Source: Abditibacteriaceae bacterium (GTDB lineage: Bacteria; Armatimonadota; Abditibacteriia; Abditibacteriales; Abditibacteriaceae). Taken from it: 64,000 bases of DNA. Where the stretch lies: assembly GCA_031372065.1 (NCBI GenBank), contig JANMKN010000015.1, forward strand, positions 1,683-65,682, written 5' to 3'. Numbering within the stretch: the stretch's first letter is position 1; each line of letters opens with the position of its first letter. The translations under genes were made by a program, and so were the position numbers. The notes under the pieces were generated by a model. The model worked only from the letters and a program-made list of their open reading frames with translations, was not told the DNA's origin and made no database searches. Positions 9,330-39,641 of this stretch are shown here, in pieces.

Positions 9330-10645
9330 AAAATTTCAAGCGCAGTGACCGGCGCTTCCTCATTTCGATAGGAACGTTTTCGCTCCTGCTGCTCGGCTGC
9401 GCGTGGTGGTGGAATGCGTTCAACGCCATGCCGCAAGTGACAATCCCAAACCCGAAAATGCCCTCGCCTAACGCGTTTGACATTTACGCGAAGGCGTATC
9501 TTTCCTATACGGTTCGGCCTCTCTCGCTTTACGAGGATTATGACGCCAAAGCCCAAAATATAGAAACAAACCGTGTAAAGACGTGGGAGCAGCAGTTGCC
9601 TTTTTATCGCACACCAGAAATTCAAAAATGGCTGGCGGGCAACCAAGGCGCGCTCAAACTTTTGCGGCAAGGTTTCAAATATGAATATCTTCAGCCGCCA
9701 GCACGGTCGTTTATGACGATGTTTCCACATTTCGCCAAAGCCAGAGAAATGGCGCGCACTTTGGACACAGAAGGTAATATACGGGCCGCACAAGGCAATT
9801 GGAGCGGAGCCGCCGACAGCGCCTTAGATGCGATTCATTTAGGCCATGCTATTCCACGCGGCGGGGCGTTAATCGCCTCTTTGGTTGGTTATGCCATTCA
9901 AGCGATAGGCCAAAAGCAATTGCAAAATGTGTTGCCGCATCTTGATGCCACAACTTGCCGTGCCGCTGCCAAACGTCTCGAAGAACTATACGGAAATCGC
10001 GTGCCGTTCGATGTCGTTCTAACCGAAGACAAATGGACAACGCAGGCCAGTTTGTTGGAAATCATGCAACAGCAAAACTGGATTAAATCACTCTATCAAA
10101 TGCGAGGTTCGCCATCGCCCTTGAAATTCCGCTTCTACAGCAAACAGCGCCTGATGAGCGATTACACCAGTCACATAGATGCCCAGATCGCCGCCGCGAA
10201 GCAACCCTATGCAAAAGCGAATTCGCCTCAAGAACCTACTGACCCCCTGCTTGATTCTTTTATCGTGTCCTTCGGCAGAGCGCGATGGAGTGCGGCGCGC
10301 GTGGAAACAAAAAATACCCTGCTCATCGTTGCTTTGGCGCTGCGCGCCTACAAACTCGAACACGGCGCGTATCCTGAAAAACTGGATGCTTTAGTGCCGA
10401 ATTACTTGCAAGAAATTCCAACCGACCCGTTTGGCAGCGGCGAACCGCTGCGCTACAAAAAGCAAGCTACGAACTATAAATTGTGGAGCATCGGCTCCGA
10501 TAAAAAAGATGACGGCGGGATATTCGCCATTCTTCCCGGTTTCAAACGTCCACAGGAAGCCGAAGCCAAACAGAAAAAATTCACGCGTTTTTACCTTATG
10601 CTACCCGACAGCAAAGGCGATTTTGTATTTGGCATTAACCATTGA
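9326..10645 (+). CDS. Membrane-anchored protein with pseudopilin-like C-terminal motif (paralogue 2)
   Basis: The ATG at 9326 overlaps the upstream stop (ATGA). Architecture and motifs match the upstream gene (IPNPKMPSPNAFD; LALRAYKLEHGAYPEKLDALVPNYLQEIPTDPFGSGEPLRYKKQATNYKLWSIGSDKKDDGG). Confidence 0.7.
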   Translation: MKNFKRSDRRFLISIGTFSLLLLGCAWWWNAFNAMPQVTIPNPKMPSPNAFDIYAKAYLSYTVRPLSLYEDYDAKAQNIETNRVKTWEQQLPFYRTPEIQKWLAGNQGALKLLRQGFKYEYLQPPARSFMTMFPHFAKAREMARTLDTEGNIRAAQGNWSGAADSALDAIHLGHAIPRGGALIASLVGYAIQAIGQKQLQNVLPHLDATTCRAAAKRLEELYGNRVPFDVVLTEDKWTTQASLLEIMQQQNWIKSLYQMRGSPSPLKFRFYSKQRLMSDYTSHIDAQIAAAKQPYAKANSPQEPTDPLLDSFIVSFGRARWSAARVETKNTLLIVALALRAYKLEHGAYPEKLDALVPNYLQEIPTDPFGSGEPLRYKKQATNYKLWSIGSDKKDDGGIFAILPGFKRPQEAEAKQKKFTRFYLMLPDSKGDFVFGINH

Positions 10646-32219: not shown

Positions 32220-32648
32220 TCATTCAATTTGCCGATAAAACGTCCAACCATAAACGATGACTAAATAAGTCCAGAACAGCGCGAACGCGAAATGGGCCAT
32301 CGTCTCCAATTTTTTGCCGCGCCACAACGACGCATCATAAAAGAAGAATTGCACAAGCCAGCGGCACAGCCAGAAAAACGCGATGGCGCCCGCCACATAA
32401 CGCCCCAGAATGGTTTTTTCGAGCAAAGAATTGGTGCCAAATAACGACAGCGCTCCGATAAAGCCAATCACCAACGTGACGAAAAAATTATGCACATAAA
32501 ACATCTGCCGATTGAAGGGCGAAAGCCGCGATAATTCTTCTTTCCAGTTGAAACGCTTTTCAAAAAAGATATGAGCAAACGCCAAAACGAGCAGCGCAGC
32601 GCCCGCTAATTTGAGGTGAAGTGGCAGCGAAAAAAGCGCGTTCGTCAT
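32220..32648 (-). CDS. Four-helix membrane protein of unknown function
   Basis: 142 aa. Its ATG directly abuts the TAA of the upstream enolase-like gene (TAAATG). Confidence 0.55.
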   Translation of the reverse strand: MTNALFSLPLHLKLAGAALLVLAFAHIFFEKRFNWKEELSRLSPFNRQMFYVHNFFVTLVIGFIGALSLFGTNSLLEKTILGRYVAGAIAFFWLCRWLVQFFFYDASLWRGKKLETMAHFAFALFWTYLVIVYGWTFYRQIE

Positions 32649-34100
32649 TTAAAATGTCGCCGCGTCGAATTGATCCAACGCACGGCACGCATCTAAATCG
32701 GGCCATACCGGAGTGCCCAAACCGGGCATTTGATGCAACGCCGCCACATCAATTTCTCCGTTTGTGATTTGCAAGCGCGCCAAATTATTTTCCTCTGTAT
32801 AAAGTTGTGGCAAGGCGGCGACGGCCTCGTTTTGCTTGTCGCGGCTCAAATGCGAGAGTCCGCGAAAATAATGATGGCCGTTACGTTCGGCGTGCGAAAT
32901 TCCAAGCGTCGAAAGCGCCACTAAATCCTGCTGCAAAGCCACGATGCCGATGTTGGTTAAATCTTCGGCAGATAAAATCGCGCGCCGTCCGGCAGCTTTT
33001 TCTTGTTGCACGCGCGCTAAATTCGCCACGCTTTTGAAGGTGTTTTTGCAGTTCTTGTGACTGGTGCCGCTGTAGCCCAAAGCCAAAGCGTGCCCGAATG
33101 AATCAAGCGCATCATCGGCTTCATCAATGATGACCGGGAACTGCTTTGCAACGCGCGCTAATTCGCCGCAACGCGCGGCATCCAACGCATAAGCGCGTGC
33201 CAAAGGCTGCTCGACAAATAGTAGTGAGAAAGCCATTCTCCGCAAAGAGAGGCGCTGCGAAATTTGTTCGACTAAGGGCACAACTTGCTCAAAACTTTCG
33301 TATTGCTCGTTGCCATCCAAAGTGCAAACGTAGTTGGCATTGGGCATCGTTTCGTCCAAAACTGCCGCGATATTTTCAAGGCGCGCGATGTCGTGTTCCA
33401 ACTGGTTGCAAACCTTGATTTTAAAATAGCGCACGCCATAAAAACGAATCACGTCATCCAAACTCTGCGGCAAACCATCGCCCAGTTTTTCGTCGCCGTG
33501 AATTTCGGAATTCCGAATCGGATCGGATAAACCAACCGTGTGCCGCGCGAAGATTTTCTTTCGCGGCGCGGTTGGCAAAATATCGCGCACATTCAGATTT
33601 TTAAAAGACGCATCGAAGGCTTCCAACTCCACGCCTGCCGCGTTGCTTTTGAGATATTGAAAAAATGATAAACCGCACAATTTCGCCGCTGCATCGTTGA
33701 CAGCGCGCTCCAGGAGCGACGGGCCGAAACCCGCCAATAATTTCGGCAAATACGCCTGCGCCGCTTTTTGATGCACTTCGTGAGAAACCTGCCACCACAA
33801 GCGAAACGGCGTCGCAAATTCACAATTCTGCGCTGCTTCTGCCGCCCAACGAATCACCTGAATTTGGTCGCGCAATTCCTGCGCGTAATCTTTTTCCGGC
33901 GCTTTGTCGAACCATTTTGGCGGCAAATTATCCGATGCGATGCCACGCGCTACCGCGCCTTTTTCGTCGCGAATCTGCGCCACCACATACAAATGCGGAC
34001 AGCGCTCCAACTTCGCCGAGCCATAGCGAAAGGGCATTCGCGTTTGCACGCTTTGCCAGAAAAATTTAATGCTCTCGACTTTGATTTTAAGGAGATTCAT
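32649..34100 (-). CDS. Enolase-superfamily (mandelate racemase / muconate lactonising enzyme-like) protein
   Basis: The KxK motif FKIKV and acidic ligand candidates LDGNEQY, VEQPL and IIDEAD appear in the canonical order. At 483 aa it is longer than typical family members. Confidence 0.6.
   Translation of the reverse strand: MNLLKIKVESIKFFWQSVQTRMPFRYGSAKLERCPHLYVVAQIRDEKGAVARGIASDNLPPKWFDKAPEKDYAQELRDQIQVIRWAAEAAQNCEFATPFRLWWQVSHEVHQKAAQAYLPKLLAGFGPSLLERAVNDAAAKLCGLSFFQYLKSNAAGVELEAFDASFKNLNVRDILPTAPRKKIFARHTVGLSDPIRNSEIHGDEKLGDGLPQSLDDVIRFYGVRYFKIKVCNQLEHDIARLENIAAVLDETMPNANYVCTLDGNEQYESFEQVVPLVEQISQRLSLRRMAFSLLFVEQPLARAYALDAARCGELARVAKQFPVIIDEADDALDSFGHALALGYSGTSHKNCKNTFKSVANLARVQQEKAAGRRAILSAEDLTNIGIVALQQDLVALSTLGISHAERNGHHYFRGLSHLSRDKQNEAVAALPQLYTEENNLARLQITNGEIDVAALHQMPGLGTPVWPDLDACRALDQFDAATF
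34060..34091. repeat. Direct repeat copy 1 (32 nt), covering codons 4-13 of the enolase-like gene
   Basis: AAAAATTTAATGCTCTCGACTTTGATTTTAAG matches 39566-39597 at 28 of 32 positions in the same orientation. Confidence 0.8.
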
Positions 34101-34116: not shown

Positions 34117-35781
34117 TTATTTCACTCCTGCTAATTGCAAAAAGTCATCGTGTGAGAGGCCGCGAATTTCATTTTCGTCGGCGTTATGCACATCGTTATC
34201 CACGATTTGCGCGAAAAGTTCGCGCTTGCCGCGCAGAATTTCGTCCACGCGCTCTTCGATGGTTTCCAGCATGACGTAGCGATAAACATGAACCGGGCGC
34301 GTTTGGCCGGGGCGATGGGCGCGGTCTTCGGCTTGCGTTTCGGTGGCAGGATTCCACCAGCGGTCAAAATGAAAAACATACGACGCGCTTTGTAAATTGA
34401 GGCCCACGCCGCCCGCGCGTAGCGAGACAATCAAAAGTGGCGGGCCGTCTTGCGTCGCGAATTCATCCAAGGCGCGTTGGCGTGCGACGCTGTCCATATC
34501 GCCGGTGAAAAGCAGCGGATTCCACTGCGATAATTCGCGCCGCAAGCGCTTCGCACCGAAGTTCTCGTTGGTAAATTGCGTGAAAATGAGCGCGCGTTCG
34601 CCGCTTTCGATGATGTCGGGCAGGCGTTCGCGGAGGTCATCTAACTTCGAGGAAAAAGTTGTGCTGCCCGGCGCAAAATTGCAGATTTGCTGAAGACGCG
34701 TCAGGTGCGCTAAAACGCCGTCGAAACGCAGTTCGCGGGCTGCGATGGCCGCGCTCCATTCTTCGCTGGCGCTGCTTGTTGAATCGTCGTAAGCAGCGCG
34801 TTGTTCTGTCGTGAGTGGCAACGGCAACGTGGTGACGATTTTCGGCGGCAAATCGGGCAAAACCTCGGCTTTGCGACGGCGCAATTGATGTTGTGAGAGC
34901 AAAATGCGCAAGCGTGGTGCATCGGGGAAAATCGTATTTTTCGCGGTCACAAATTCGAGAATCGAAGCGGCGTCATCAATGTGATTTTCCAGCGGCGTGC
35001 CAGTTAAAGCCCACGAACGTCGGCGCGGCAAAGCCTTGCATACCTGCGCGACGGCACTGTCGCGGTTTTTGATGCGCTGCGCTTCATCCAGCGCCACCAC
35101 GTCCCAGCCGCCGCGCGTGGGCAGTTGGTTCCAGTCCGGATTGCCTTGTAAAATCGCTTCCCAATCGGCGCGCAGAGTTTCGTAGGAAACCACCGTCAAA
35201 TGCGCCTGATAATTCCATTGCCAGCGCCGTAATGTCGGTGCGCCGCCGATGACCATGACGTGCAATTCCGGCGTCCATTGCGCCGCCGCGCGCCGCCATT
35301 GTTCCAGCAAACTGGCCGGCGCAACAATCAGTGCGCGTTGAATTTGGCGCCGATGCAATAGCACGCGCAAAGCGGCTAAAGTTTGTATCGTTTTGCCCAA
35401 ACCCATCTCGTCGCCCAGCAAAAGATGGCGCGCTTTGAGCAGCGAACGCACGCCGCTTTGCTGAAAACCAAATAACGCGTGCGGCCAATCAAGCGGCCCG
35501 TTTTCGCGCAGCAGCATTTCCGGCGCCGCTTGCAAAAGCGCCGCAAATTTCCAGCGCAAGCCATCGTCGGGCGGGGCAGTTTTCGTTTCGTCGTTTTCGA
35601 TGTCCTCGTCTGGCGATTCTGTGGTTCCCACGGAAGGCGGCGCGCTGAAATTTAATTGCACATTGTAGGTGCGCGCTTTCCATTGCCGAACATGGCCGAG
35701 TTGCGAAGTTGCAGCAGATTGCGGCGGCGTTCCGATGCGCCGCGCCGGTTGTTCGTCGTGCCACTGCCACCAAGTAGTCAT
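34117..35781 (-). CDS. SNF2-family helicase/translocase (cassette gene E)
   Basis: Motifs GDEMGLGKT (I), LDEAQRIKN (II), LTGTPLEN (III), SLRAGGVGLNLQ (V) and QAEDRAHRPGQ (VI). About 100 aa of acidic N-terminal extension. The start overlaps the stop of gene D (ATGA). Confidence 0.9.
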   Translation of the reverse strand: MTTWWQWHDEQPARRIGTPPQSAATSQLGHVRQWKARTYNVQLNFSAPPSVGTTESPDEDIENDETKTAPPDDGLRWKFAALLQAAPEMLLRENGPLDWPHALFGFQQSGVRSLLKARHLLLGDEMGLGKTIQTLAALRVLLHRRQIQRALIVAPASLLEQWRRAAAQWTPELHVMVIGGAPTLRRWQWNYQAHLTVVSYETLRADWEAILQGNPDWNQLPTRGGWDVVALDEAQRIKNRDSAVAQVCKALPRRRSWALTGTPLENHIDDAASILEFVTAKNTIFPDAPRLRILLSQHQLRRRKAEVLPDLPPKIVTTLPLPLTTEQRAAYDDSTSSASEEWSAAIAARELRFDGVLAHLTRLQQICNFAPGSTTFSSKLDDLRERLPDIIESGERALIFTQFTNENFGAKRLRRELSQWNPLLFTGDMDSVARQRALDEFATQDGPPLLIVSLRAGGVGLNLQSASYVFHFDRWWNPATETQAEDRAHRPGQTRPVHVYRYVMLETIEERVDEILRGKRELFAQIVDNDVHNADENEIRGLSHDDFLQLAGVK

Positions 35782-36338
35782 GCTTCTGTTAAAGCTGCCT
35801 CCAACGCGCGTTCGGCGCGCTCGAAAGGCTCCAAAATGAGGCCGCGCCCGGCCAATTTTTCAAACAATTCGGCGGCGGCTTCGAGAGGTTCTTGCGGCGT
35901 CCATAGCACATCCACTTCGCCCGCTTCGCCGTTGGCATCGAATGTCATTATGGGCTGCGCGATTTCTCTATCGGACGCTAAATTTTCGTGTAAAGCGCCC
36001 ACGCGCGCGATAGGAATTTCTAAGAGTAATTGGCCTTCTGGCCCAAATAAACCTGGCGCAATGTCTGCCGCGCGATAAAACAACAGCGACGGTGCCAATT
36101 GCGCCGCTTGAAACAAGGTGGCGCACAAACGCCGCGCCGCTGCGTGTGGTTTGTCGCGTGCGCGCCACAAATCGTCGCGCAAGAGTTCCAGACGATTGAA
36201 AACGAATTCCAATGGTTCTCCTCGCGCGTTAAGCAACAAAAGCGCGCCCGCCACGAAATCATCCCCTTCGCGCGACACAACTAAAAATGCCGCGACGCCT
36301 AATTCTTCGATGCTTTCGTTATCGTGAAAAGGAATCAT
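35778..36338 (-). CDS. Hypothetical protein (cassette gene D), translationally coupled to the SNF2 gene
   Basis: 186-aa ORF with normal composition. The ATGA overlap with gene E supports expression. No family recognised. Confidence 0.6.
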   Translation of the reverse strand: MIPFHDNESIEELGVAAFLVVSREGDDFVAGALLLLNARGEPLEFVFNRLELLRDDLWRARDKPHAAARRLCATLFQAAQLAPSLLFYRAADIAPGLFGPEGQLLLEIPIARVGALHENLASDREIAQPIMTFDANGEAGEVDVLWTPQEPLEAAAELFEKLAGRGLILEPFERAERALEAALTEA

Positions 36339-36452
36339 TTTAAATTTTGCAAAATAGGAACGCGGAGGCTTGCCCTATACGGGAATGACACGGTTTTTGT
36401 AGGTTCAGATAAGTGTTTAACCCGTCGCTTACGCTCAGGGTTCTTTGCATCG

Positions 36453-37733
36453 CTAAAGCGTTATTTCTGAATCGTCGCTTGGTTTTTCACTTTGCAAATC
36501 AGTGTCTTCTTCGTAGGAAATTTGCAGAGCTTCAACGACAATATCGGCTTCGATGCCATAAAGACGGCGCAAATCCCACGCGTTAATCCACGAGCGCAAA
36601 TATTGGCGTAGGCCGGTGCTAAGAGAGTATTCGCGCCCTTCGTTTTGCGGCGGCGCTTCCCAATGATAAGCGACGCTATAAAGTTCACGCGCCCGTTCGC
36701 CGATGGCCGCCACGTTTTCCTTGGTTGGTGGGCGCAGGTCTATCGCGTGGCGTTCGATGGCTTTCATGCCGCTTTCGGCGATGCTCATAAGCGGCGCATC
36801 GGGCGTGTTTTCGAGACGTGCCGGAATCGCGTGCAAATCGTCTTTACGTCCGCGCAAAACCTGACTGGAATAATCTTTGGTGATCGTGAACACCGCGCCA
36901 AGGCCCGGCGTGCCGCCTTGTGTGGAAACGTTTTTATCCAATCCCATCAACTGCGCGAGATGGGCATAAGCGCGTCCGCGCTGACGCGGGCTATAACGCG
37001 AGATCATTTCGGTTTCGTCCAGCAAAATAATCCAGCCGTTGTAGCCCGCCGAGCGGAAAAACCGCGCCAAAAATTCAAAGCGCTGCAAAAACTGACCTTT
37101 GATAGGCTTGCTAACCCGCGCCACCGGTTCGCGGATTTCTTTAAGGGCAAATTTTAGGTCGCCCGCCAGCATAGGGTTGCCTGTCCATTCGGCCAAAACG
37201 CGCTCTTGCAAGGCTTCATCGGTGTGCTTTTCAAAAACGCGCAACGTCAAAGCCAAACGCGGATCAAGACCCGGCGTGTGGCGCGCAAAATCGAAAAACT
37301 GCTGATAATGTGGCGCGCTGTCCGAGCGCCAGCCATGCGCGATTTCGGCGAGTGCTGGGCCGGAAAGCTGCGGCGCCACAGCGGCTTCGACGCACGCTTT
37401 ATAAACCTTACCCAAATCGTGCAGCGGCGTTTCTTTGTTGAGAACGATTTGCGAAACCACGAAATTCGCTTCCAACGCCAGATGGCGCATGGCTTCGAGC
37501 CAGTGCGATTTTCCGGCGCCGAAATCGGCTTCGAGCAAGAGGCCGGGCAGAGCTTTCAATGCGGGATTATCCCAGCGAGCGAGGATGTTTTCATGGAGCG
37601 CTTCAAATTTCTCGCGCACATCGCTTTGGTGCGGCTCTAAAAAACGCACCACATCGCGGTTGGGCACGCCGGCACGGAGCGCTTCAATCGCGCGCCGTGC
37701 TTCGATGGTGGATAAGGCATTAGAAGTAGGCAT
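36453..37733 (-). CDS. P-loop ATPase of the DUF2791 / BrxD-like type (cassette gene C)
   Basis: Walker A LEADFGAGKSHW and Walker B GWIILLDETE. The N-terminal ARRAIEALRAGVPNRDVV segment resembles BREX-associated BrxD/PglY-type ATPases; this is recognition from memory, not a search. Confidence 0.75.
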   Translation of the reverse strand: MPTSNALSTIEARRAIEALRAGVPNRDVVRFLEPHQSDVREKFEALHENILARWDNPALKALPGLLLEADFGAGKSHWLEAMRHLALEANFVVSQIVLNKETPLHDLGKVYKACVEAAVAPQLSGPALAEIAHGWRSDSAPHYQQFFDFARHTPGLDPRLALTLRVFEKHTDEALQERVLAEWTGNPMLAGDLKFALKEIREPVARVSKPIKGQFLQRFEFLARFFRSAGYNGWIILLDETEMISRYSPRQRGRAYAHLAQLMGLDKNVSTQGGTPGLGAVFTITKDYSSQVLRGRKDDLHAIPARLENTPDAPLMSIAESGMKAIERHAIDLRPPTKENVAAIGERARELYSVAYHWEAPPQNEGREYSLSTGLRQYLRSWINAWDLRRLYGIEADIVVEALQISYEEDTDLQSEKPSDDSEITL

Positions 37734-37774
37734 GAGTTTGAATCAAAAAATAGAGAACGCAATTTGCGTGCTAT

Positions 37775-38713
37775 TTAAGCAATTTGAACCAGCGCATTTA
37801 ACGGATTAGCGCGGCGGCGGTCGTGAACATCTTCGACGATGCGCATTTTGAGCGCGGTGTAGTTATCCACGCCGCGTTTGACATCGTTTAGCAGCGCAGG
37901 CGCGGCCACGGCGACAAGCAGAAAATGGCTCGTTTCGTCGGTGTCGTCAATAAACTGGCGCAGCACTTCATAGACATCAAGCGCTGTGCCGCGCGAATAA
38001 CGCACCGGCGCCGCGCCGGGCAAAACAGTGGCGGTGACGGCGTTTAAATCCAGCAAAAGCGTTAGCCCGCTGTGCCCAGTTTCACGCAGCCACAAGGCCA
38101 AACTCGAAAGCAGCAGGCGCGCGTTATGGCGCGCGATTTTTCCGAAAATTTGCACGCGTTTGAGCGCCGTGAGATTATATTTTTCGCCGCACAGCCATGA
38201 TTTAATGGTGCTGGCATCGGTGGGCGCCACATTTTGCGGATTGATTTGGCCGCTGCAAAGCATCGCCATGGCAATGCGAAATTCTTTGTTGAAACGCGCA
38301 TCTTTTAGTAAATCGTTGGCGATCCAGCGTTGTGCTTCGGCCATCACATCGGTGGGCCGCAAACCGCGCGACGCGGCGCAGTCATCCAGCGAAGGCAAAC
38401 CGCTTTCGGGCAAAGCGTAACCTTGCGCGGCAAAGCGCGTGCGCAGCCAATGCACAGCCAATGCGTCCCAATCAATCTGTCGCGCGACGGCGAAAAATAT
38501 CTGGTCAATCATGTAAACGCGCGTTTGGCAGGCGTCCACACGCGCCACAACGAGATTTTGCGCCGTCGCTGTTTGCGCCACTTGGTTTAAAATATCCGCG
38601 CGGCGTTCGGGCGCAGCCACGGCAATTTTTACCGCCGCGCCGCCGCCCGGCACAAAGTCGTTGATGTATTCCTTATTCAGTAATTTGAGCCATTCGTCCA
38701 GAGAAACTTGCAT
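37775..38713 (-). CDS. Hypothetical protein, possibly a degenerate P-loop-fold partner (cassette gene B)
   Basis: Start placed at the ATG at 38713, which is preceded by AAGGA. GGGAAVKIAVAAP stands where a Walker A would be, and a hydrophobic-Asp strand (GLTLLLDLNAV) follows later. No confident family. Confidence 0.6.
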   Translation of the reverse strand: MQVSLDEWLKLLNKEYINDFVPGGGAAVKIAVAAPERRADILNQVAQTATAQNLVVARVDACQTRVYMIDQIFFAVARQIDWDALAVHWLRTRFAAQGYALPESGLPSLDDCAASRGLRPTDVMAEAQRWIANDLLKDARFNKEFRIAMAMLCSGQINPQNVAPTDASTIKSWLCGEKYNLTALKRVQIFGKIARHNARLLLSSLALWLRETGHSGLTLLLDLNAVTATVLPGAAPVRYSRGTALDVYEVLRQFIDDTDETSHFLLVAVAAPALLNDVKRGVDNYTALKMRIVEDVHDRRRANPLNALVQIA

Positions 38714-38723
38714 GAAAATCCTT

Positions 38724-39497
38724 TCACTGCGGCGGCGTAAATTTGATGGTGGAATATTCTTTTTCGGCGCCGTCGCGCGTGACAAAATGCAAACGTTTGC
38801 CTTTAGCACCTTCGCGGCTGGAAGTGCTGGAAGGCAAACTCAAGCGATAGCCCCGTTTCGTTTCGAAAATGCCACTGGTATCAAGAAAATACACATCGCG
38901 CGTGAAATCAAGCAGCGTATAATCCTTGGCCGCGCCGGGCAAAAGCGTCAGCACTTTATAAATGTCGGGCAAAGGCCGATCAATGTAATCTTCGCTTTTG
39001 GCGCCCGCGCGCAAGAGTTCGTAGGCTTCAAAAAGCGTTTCAATAAACTGGCTCGATTTGGCTTTGGGTTCTTGCGCCTGCACTTTGCGCAGCAGGGCGG
39101 CTAATACTGCTGGGCGCAAATTAAATTCGAGTTTTTTATCAATGCGCACCGCGCTAATTTCCGCTTCGGGGCGCAGTAAAACCGGATAACAGAAAATAAC
39201 GCCTTCGCGCTCGGAAAGGCGCACACCGGCATTTTGCGCTGCGTTTTGCAATTCTGCCGCGAAATCGTTAGCCAAATAAGCAGCGGCATCAAAATTAAGC
39301 GGTGCACAGTCGGCGGCTTTGGCGGCGGCGTTTTCGCCCGCATTTTGCGCCACCTGACGCAGTTTTTCCAAATCGCGCAAATTGCCCAGCGCGACGGCTT
39401 TTTCCAATTTTGCTATCGCTGCCGCCTGCTTTTTCGCCGCGTCGTGCCATGCGCGCACGGCCTGTTCGTAGTCGCTCAAAACCGGCTCTAATTTCAT
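38724..39497 (-). CDS. Hypothetical protein (cassette gene A, first gene)
   Basis: 257-aa ORF with AAGGA before its ATG. It has an Ala-rich helical N-terminal half and a mixed C-terminal half. No family recognised. Confidence 0.6.
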   Translation of the reverse strand: MKLEPVLSDYEQAVRAWHDAAKKQAAAIAKLEKAVALGNLRDLEKLRQVAQNAGENAAAKAADCAPLNFDAAAYLANDFAAELQNAAQNAGVRLSEREGVIFCYPVLLRPEAEISAVRIDKKLEFNLRPAVLAALLRKVQAQEPKAKSSQFIETLFEAYELLRAGAKSEDYIDRPLPDIYKVLTLLPGAAKDYTLLDFTRDVYFLDTSGIFETKRGYRLSLPSSTSSREGAKGKRLHFVTRDGAEKEYSTIKFTPPQ

Positions 39498-39537: not shown

Positions 39538-39600
39538 TCACGGCGCTGGTTTCAGATCATTGATTAAAAATTCGACGCTCTCGACTTTGATTCTAAGCAT
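39538..39600 (-). pseudogene. 20-codon remnant resembling the 5' end of the enolase-like gene
   Basis: Translates to MLRIKVESVEFLINDLKPAP*, compared with the enolase-like start MNLLKIKVESIKFF. The nucleotide match is the 32-nt direct repeat. Confidence 0.5.
39566..39597. repeat. Direct repeat copy 2 (32 nt)
   Basis: AAAAATTCGACGCTCTCGACTTTGATTCTAAG is 28/32 identical to 34060-34091. Confidence 0.8.
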
Positions 39601-39641
39601 AGTATGAGTGTGATGAGTAGCGTCAAGAATGGGTGCGCCAG

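Follow-up and report, generated by a model that had tools for sequence, protein, structure and literature searches.

ATPases of the BrxD type occur in bacterial defence systems that pair an ATPase with a helicase. BrxD is classed as a standalone ORC/Cdc6 AAA+ protein that forms a tight dyad with its helicase, for which it is the proposed loader (PMC12839542). In BREX type 2 the partner is the Lhr/Ski2-like helicase BrxHI, and the dyad is accompanied by the PglX methyltransferase, PglZ, BrxC/PglY and PglW. Shango is smaller, being made up of three genes that encode a TerB protein (SngA), an ATPase (SngB) and a helicase (SngC). In other systems the helicase is linked to a nuclease: ZorD of type I Zorya consists of an SNF2 helicase and a C-terminal restriction-fold nuclease, and in the DUF499 "BREX-related" systems an SNF2-nuclease is partnered by an ORC/Cdc6/STAND ATPase. 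Here we describe a cassette of five genes, A to E, in a 64,000-nucleotide stretch of DNA from an Abditibacteriaceae bacterium (assembly GCA_031372065.1, contig JANMKN010000015.1, positions 1,683 to 65,682), the whole of which is referred to as the window. The cassette brings together a BrxD-like ATPase, its predicted inactive paralogue, an SNF2-family helicase and two protein families, A and D, that match no model in the libraries searched. With a probability of roughly 0.55, we read it as a two-module DNA-directed system against phages or other mobile DNA.

The five open reading frames (ORFs) share one orientation on the minus strand. Gene A (38724-39497, 257 amino acids) is the first of a conserved A-B-C core and is followed by gene B (37775-38713, 312 amino acids), a degenerate paralogue of the ATPase gene C (36453-37733, 426 amino acids). 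Gene D (35778-36338, 186 amino acids) encodes a protein with a predicted RNase H-like fold, and gene E (34117-35781, 554 amino acids) the SNF2-family helicase or translocase. The preliminary description of this DNA had proposed that these genes form an operon, with coupling visible at two junctions, and both points are borne out: the ORFs are present, their order is conserved across phyla, the stop codon of A is followed by AAGGATTTTC and the ATG of B, a 10-nucleotide gap with an AAGGA ribosome-binding site, and D and E overlap as ATGA. The gap between C and D is 114 nucleotides. A GTG at 38809 would lengthen the ORF of B, but the orthologues of B start at the ATG (M.....EW).

Comparison with described ATPase-helicase systems

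No named system matched the cassette in Pfam, NCBIfam, PADLOC-DB 2.0.0 or PHROGs, and full-text literature searches returned no description of it; one may exist in other publications or database releases. Annotation from these libraries leaves A and D unassigned because none of them holds a model for either protein. The nearest systems in their working are the BrxD-BrxHI dyad, Shango and the ATPase plus SNF2-nuclease systems, and the cassette is a member of none of them. Like BREX type 2, it contains a standalone PF10923 ORC/Cdc6-type AAA+ ATPase tightly linked with a superfamily 2 helicase. However, the helicase of the cassette is of the SNF2 type, the ATPase is duplicated as an active and a dead copy, and families A and D are conserved alongside. 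None of PglX, PglZ, BrxC/PglY, PglW and BrxHI was found in the five genes, the ten neighbours scanned or the loci of relatives. Shango shares with the cassette the combination of an ATPase, a helicase and a small accessory protein, and C matches the SngB model (E = 4.9e-11), but the cassette has five genes where Shango has three, no TerB protein was found in A, D or any neighbour with Pfam or PADLOC, and SngC was not among the best 25 of the 42 PADLOC matches of E.

The architecture of ZorD recurs in 16 of 31 E orthologues, but the E protein of the window lacks the nuclease, it scores 173 bits against the ZorD equivalog NF041790 (cut-off 1500), and neither the cassette nor its neighbours encode ZorA, ZorB or ZorC. 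The DUF499 systems have a comparable pairing of ATPase and SNF2-nuclease but differ in that the cassette has neither a methyltransferase nor a DUF499 ATPase. Against two DrmD equivalogs of DISARM E reaches 66 and 59 bits (cut-offs 610 and 950), and against the DpdE equivalog 60.9 bits (cut-off 500); DrmA, DrmB, DrmC and the DISARM methyltransferase are absent from the cassette and its neighbours, and no DpdA-C modification genes are present. It had been claimed beforehand that the composition differs from that of BREX, Shango and DISARM, and that methyltransferase, PglZ and TerB genes are missing. Both statements hold for the cassette and the neighbours scanned, and the components that define Zorya and Dpd are lacking as well.

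A further likeness is found in the BrxA-BrxB-BrxC genes of type I BREX, where a small accessory protein, an inactive ORC/Cdc6-STAND-like NTPase and an active PF10923 ATPase follow one another in that order; BrxB has been described as inactive (PMC12839542). As differences, A has no fold match in the PDB at E <= 0.001 and B matches no BrxB model. The resemblance would be one of organisation, an analogy that does not imply homology.

The ATPase and its inactive paralogue

Gene C encodes the active ATPase of the pair. Its product matches Pfam PF10923 (BrxC_BrxD) at E = 5.8e-24 with 85.2 bits, well above the gathering threshold of 22.2 bits, and in PADLOC it matches BrxD (3.4e-15) better than SngB. 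The translation contains the segment ARRAIEALRAGVP, a Walker A motif (DFGAGKSH) and a Walker B motif (WIILLDETE), as had been reported when C was first assigned to the BrxD type, and all 20 orthologues compared keep the patterns FG.GKSH and L.DE.E unchanged. The label ORC/Cdc6 is taken from the published classification of BrxD (PMC12839542). Both C and B fall far under the 350-bit cut-off of the NCBIfam BrxD equivalog NF033438, with 53.1 bits for C and 36.9 bits for B. All PADLOC matches of the two ATPases are to defence families.

The product of gene B also passes the PF10923 gathering threshold (1.7e-12, 47.5 bits) and matches the PADLOC models of BrxD (7.4e-11) and SngB, but not that of BrxB. 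Orthologues of B contain no GK[ST], and their Walker B strand carries a single aspartate and has lost the glutamate, while they are well conserved elsewhere. In profile-profile alignment with hhalign, residues 41-257 of B align onto residues 78-265 of C (E = 2.3e-4), and the two Walker B strands are matched to each other. Because of these three features, B is best interpreted from its sequence as a pseudo-ATPase paralogue of C. It had earlier been taken for a P-loop-fold relative with a retained hydrophobic-Asp strand, and the lost Walker A had been placed at GGGAAVKIAV. That sequence is present in the translation, but on the profile alignment to C its GGGAAVK portion resembles the preceding strand, and the former P-loop more likely corresponds to AAPERRAD (residues 33-40).

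The SNF2 helicase and the Mrr nuclease of its relatives

Protein E is an SNF2-family helicase. Pfam identifies SNF2-rel_dom (2.4e-42, 145.5 bits) and Helicase_C (1.4e-18, 67.5 bits), the motifs GDEMGLGKT, DEAQ, LTGTPLEN and QAEDRAHRPGQ are all present, and helicase motifs I, II, III and VI are invariant in 31 orthologues. This motif set and the acidic N-terminal extension, which is variable and about 75-100 residues long, had both been noted before. The top PADLOC matches are ZorD (the best, 7.7e-74), DpdE and DrmD, with the BrxHII models matched as well, and the best sequence matches in the PDB are the Sulfolobus SNF2 core 1z63 and 8qy7. A pair of tryptophans at residues 4-5 is at least 90% conserved among the 31 orthologues, while the approximately 70 residues after it are not, and this pair may be a short docking motif.

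In 16 of these 31 orthologues Pfam detects a C-terminal Mrr_cat restriction-nuclease domain. The alignment of the Mrr region has the consensus DxGxDL...QCKN, which reads as the Mrr active-site pattern and suggests that the domain is intact. The E protein of the window has no Mrr or other nuclease domain in Pfam, and Mrr is absent from every Armatimonadota E protein in the orthologue set. The preliminary description found no obvious effector and supposed that A, B or D may hide one. None is indeed obvious in this copy of the cassette, but relatives show where it lies: the effector of the family is the Mrr domain fused to the helicase, and none of A, B and D.

Proteins A and D

Neither A nor D has a match in Pfam, PADLOC, NCBIfam or PHROGs (for Pfam and PADLOC at E <= 0.1), in line with the earlier remark that both match nothing known. 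This no longer holds for the fold of D. AlphaFold2 models were built from alignments of 71 homologues for D and 60 for A. The D model (pLDDT 87.7, pTM 0.86) has endonuclease V as its nearest Foldseek neighbour (E = 1.5e-7, probability 1.0, TM 0.59), followed by the C-terminal half of UvrC and then the PIWI domain of Argonaute, so the model assigns D an RNase H-like fold of the endonuclease V / UvrC-C / PIWI type. Nucleases with this fold all carry a key aspartate on strand beta1. The conserved acidic positions of D, from 109 sequences, are 6, 41, 44, 62 and 170; the active site was mapped onto them by the order of secondary-structure elements, not by superposition. An acidic pair after beta4 is found in most clades and is most degenerate, or lost, in the Armatimonadota clade whose E proteins lack Mrr. 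Thus D is unlikely to be a hidden nuclease because it is missing the canonical catalytic aspartate on beta1, and this, together with the degenerate beta4 pair, led to its rejection as the nuclease of Mrr-less versions. D has no sequence similarity to endonuclease V and was rejected as a sequence homologue when hhalign gave a probability of 0.2% against E. coli Nfi, nor were any MID, PAZ or wedge motifs found in it. Short prokaryotic Argonaute systems, whose PIWI domain is of similar fold, employ this inactive domain as a nucleic-acid sensor. D, the gene for which always lies directly 5' of E, is probably a non-catalytic reader or adaptor, judging from the model.

The AlphaFold2 model of A (pLDDT 92.1) consists of a helical hairpin (residues 3-63) followed by an alpha/beta body. 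Foldseek gave it no significant neighbour, either in the PDB (best E 0.8) or among the viral models of BFVD. Members of the family are almost all standalone proteins of 250-290 residues. With no profile match and no significant Foldseek match in either collection, TerB, BrxA and restriction-fold nucleases were rejected as identities of A. A possible E-x-D...D-K-K motif was also abandoned, as it is not kept as (D/E)xK across alignments of the wider family.

Distribution and gene order

Relatives of A are widespread. A search for close homologues gave 196 matches, with 54-100% identity among the 120 listed, and the named ones are from Armatimonadota and Abditibacteriota; those nearest to the window come from metagenome-assembled genomes (MAGs) of Abditibacteriaceae, in which A is about 80% identical. 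HMMER searches of 1.84 billion representative sequences placed 698 clusters at 50% identity in the family, 488 of them at E <= 1e-10, and a search with distant members added 1240 sequences whose named sources are Syntrophobacterales and Propionibacteriaceae. At least 570 A-family loci were found in a metagenome scan, while patterns of the Armatimonadota type recovered 19 loci among 185,579 species genomes. One MAG clearly has two loci, and a second has three matching contigs, two of them partial. The spread is patchy over several phyla, with different neighbours in every lineage, and the neighbouring genes differ even among relatives that are about 80% identical.

Gene order was compared in 40 non-redundant loci with enough downstream sequence. 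The order A-B-C-D-E is found in 31 of them, A-B-C without the last two genes in eight and A-B-C-E in one; beyond this sample, one further context has A-B-C-E and one A-B-C. The five genes form a genuine unit. A-B-C is the core module of the cassette and D-E its usual partner module.

In four Armatimonas-type loci, L004 (13168-15001), L011 (5901-8324), L016 and L024, genes other than D-E come after A-B-C. They are a recurring trio, in varying order, that encodes an unannotated protein of about 180 residues (MPWQPPLFDP...), an unannotated 139-residue protein (MTDEEKLVEKLRRIEALYARPGT...) and a DUF4287/DUF5655 protein, and this trio may be an alternative partner module. In L019 (9968-15549), which comes from the MAG most similar to the window (A 83% identical), frame shifts split each of the five genes into two or three pieces, either through assembly errors of the homopolymer type or as a decaying copy.

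Proposed mechanism and alternative explanations

In the mechanism that we propose, the A-B-C module would be responsible for sensing and loading, recognising a DNA substrate and spending ATP to recruit or load the second module. C would act as the active ATPase and probably hetero-oligomerise with its inactive paralogue B; A, always encoded first, would belong to the same module. The idea of a loader is put forward because the same role has been proposed for BrxD with BrxHI (PMC12839542). The D-E module would then act on the target, with E as a double-strand DNA translocase and D as a partner that reads DNA or a DNA structure, or serves as an adaptor, having no canonical catalytic site. Because E ends in an Mrr domain in about half of the family, the expected outcome in those members is translocation-coupled cleavage of target DNA. 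The version in the window would need ATP-driven remodelling or eviction, or an unlinked nuclease, because its own nuclease is missing.

It is conceivable, if on balance doubtful, that the nuclease-free form functions in immunity or DNA surveillance as a pathway without any cleavage of DNA. The ATPase/pseudo-ATPase pair and the new-fold protein A would in that case load an SNF2 remodeller at sites picked by the inactive endonuclease V/PIWI-like protein D, and invading DNA would be neutralised through ATP-driven eviction of the replication or transcription machinery. Relatives with Mrr would represent an "armed" version of the same chassis.

The gene content, folds, motifs, conserved synteny, Mrr fusions and patchy distribution are observations, on which the complexes, the order of events, the target, the outcome and the role in defence are predicted. 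The case for defence draws on the conserved unit, its defence-type parts, the Mrr domain in relatives, toxin-antitoxin and mobile genes among the neighbours, the patchy spread and the bracketing repeat described below. Several observations weigh against it. In the version in the window no nuclease or other toxic effector can be recognised, and no conserved acidic residue lies on beta1 of D in 109 sequences, leaving the canonical RNase H-type site absent. At 55-60% identity across Armatimonadota, A is more conserved than a typical fast-evolving sensor. Relatives of A, C and D were found in none of the phage and plasmid collections nor in IMG/VR, there are no flanking repeats at 10 other loci, and the guanine-plus-cytosine (G+C) content of the cassette (0.548) falls within the spread of the window (0.534 +/- 0.022). 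The genes flanking the cassette in the window and in relatives are mostly metabolic or housekeeping, so the classical signal of a defence island is weak. The earlier suggestion of an undescribed defence system therefore stands in part: the cassette is a conserved unit with defence-type parts that belongs to no named system, but its island context did not hold up and the defence role itself is inferred. The most likely reading is a so far undescribed variant of the defence class that combines an ATPase with a helicase(-nuclease).

A host genome-maintenance or repair system with no immune role is an unlikely explanation. D would be an endonuclease V-like reader of lesions or structures and E a translocase in the manner of RapA, Mfd or Rad54, both loaded by the ORC/Cdc6-like pair; they would remove stalled complexes or process damage in DNA. 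The nearest structural neighbours of D, endonuclease V and UvrC, are repair enzymes, but D has neither the catalytic nor the sequence features of endonuclease V. The housekeeping neighbours, the host-like G+C content, the strong conservation of A within Armatimonadota and the lack of a nuclease or toxin in the window would all suit a repair function. They are opposed by a patchy, non-core distribution (the 19 loci among 185,579 species genomes), by the MAG with two loci and by neighbours that differ between relatives of about 80% identity. Also against a repair role are the Mrr restriction nuclease fused to half of the E orthologues, the toxin-antitoxin genes in or beside cassettes, and the fact that every ATPase match is a defence family.

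Two other explanations place the cassette among known systems or mobile elements. It is improbable that the cassette is a divergent member of a named system (Shango with TerB replaced, a BrxD-helicase dyad escaped from BREX type 2, or a helicase module of Zorya, DISARM or Dpd) or has already been named in a newer resource. The matches of C to the PADLOC models of BrxD and SngB and of E to those of ZorD, DpdE, DrmD and BrxHII point in this direction, as does the make-up of Shango from TerB, ATPase and helicase. However, no TerB, PglZ, PglX, PglW, BrxC, ZorABC, DrmABC or methyltransferase is encoded in or beside the cassette, the NCBIfam equivalog scores are all far under their cut-offs, the conserved cassette proteins A and D have no match among the PADLOC models, and the literature searches gave no description of it. 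There is a still slimmer chance that the genes are cargo of an integrative element, serving its own maintenance or competition between elements and not host immunity. An insertion-like 32-nucleotide duplication brackets exactly the five genes, and some relatives have an integrase, transposases or a prophage terminase close by, but the 5.5-kb unit contains no integrase, transposase or replication gene. The missing flanking repeats elsewhere, and the lack of relatives in plasmid, phage and IMG/VR collections, count against this explanation too.

If the cassette is a defence system, it represents a widespread multi-phylum family built around the unannotated protein families A and D. The versions with and without Mrr form a natural matched pair that could reveal what an SNF2 translocase adds to immunity besides cleavage. 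One live and one dead copy of the ATPase would likewise offer a simple setting for studying the proposed role of BrxD-type ATPases as helicase loaders, also with regard to BREX type 2 and Shango.

Flanking repeat and neighbouring genes

The direct repeats reported to bound the cassette are real. The upstream copy (39566-39597) and the downstream copy (34060-34091) are each 32 nucleotides long, are identical at 28 of the 32 positions with an exact core of 16 nucleotides, and are the sole two matches in the window; none was expected by chance in 100 shuffles. The downstream copy corresponds to codons 4-14 of a 483-residue gene (32649-34100) that begins 16 nucleotides past the stop codon of E and has no Pfam match at E <= 0.001. 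The upstream copy lies inside a relic ORF of 20 codons on the minus strand (39538-39600; MLRIKVESVEFLINDLKPAP, then a stop codon) just 5' of A, which mimics the N-terminus of the 483-residue protein (MNLLKIKVESIKFF...). The relic looks like a 5' gene fragment displaced by insertion of the 5.5-kb cassette, and the repeat pair like an insertion scar around a unit that has no recombinase. Flanking repeats were dropped as a general feature of the cassette (0 of 10 other loci), and its G+C content shows no foreign base composition. Carriage by phages or plasmids is likewise unsupported by the collections searched, including IMG/VR, and by PHROGs, in which no match was found.

A sigma-70-like promoter site, TTGACG-16 nucleotides-TACTAT (39599-39626, minus strand), lies about 100 nucleotides 5' of the start codon of A; it was picked up by a consensus scan alone, which is no evidence of function. 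The 483-residue gene is directly followed, with no intergenic gap, by a gene for a 142-residue membrane-like protein (the pair spans 32220-34100, minus strand), and the two may share a transcript with the cassette. The 483-residue protein has, by eye, motifs like those of the enolase superfamily (FKIKV, VEQP, IDE). A link between the cassette and this enolase-like gene, suggested by an MR_MLE gene beside locus L115, was discarded because the two genes show no significant similarity. The ten neighbours scanned in the window include a GH127 glycosidase, a polysaccharide deacetylase, a GGDEF-HD protein, a TIG-domain protein and unknown proteins. There are no tRNA genes in the window, and a structured RNA in or around the cassette was rejected as no Rfam match was obtained.

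The island context assumed in the preliminary description is not seen, since the neighbours in the window are those just listed and the flanks of relatives are mostly housekeeping, but some loci do adjoin defence or mobile genes. Type I restriction-modification, AbiEi, methyltransferase and NERD-UvrD matches are present among 130 flanking ORFs sampled, a scan pooled over loci that gives counts of families and not values per locus. Locus L033 is flanked by HigBA-like and DUF4160/DUF2442 pairs, a PemK pair adjoins L115, transposases lie near L119 and a prophage terminase near L032. The neighbourhood signal is present but modest because defence or mobile genes occur at several loci while most flank families are metabolic.

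Genes are also found between C and D, in L029, L030 and L066. In L029 (6178-9970) these are a 1079-residue guanylate-cyclase/AAA_16/TPR (cyclase-STAND) gene and a DUF4258 toxin pair, and in L030 (8516-9977), where an integrase and a CHAT-TPR gene lie in the vicinity, they are a zinc-ribbon gene, three small ORFs and a PemK toxin. Insertions seem to be tolerated at, or drawn to, the C-D junction. In locus L034 a 17-nucleotide unit, GACTACCCGGACTTCCA, is repeated in about five tandem copies (9573-9657) approximately 350 nucleotides 5' of gene A.

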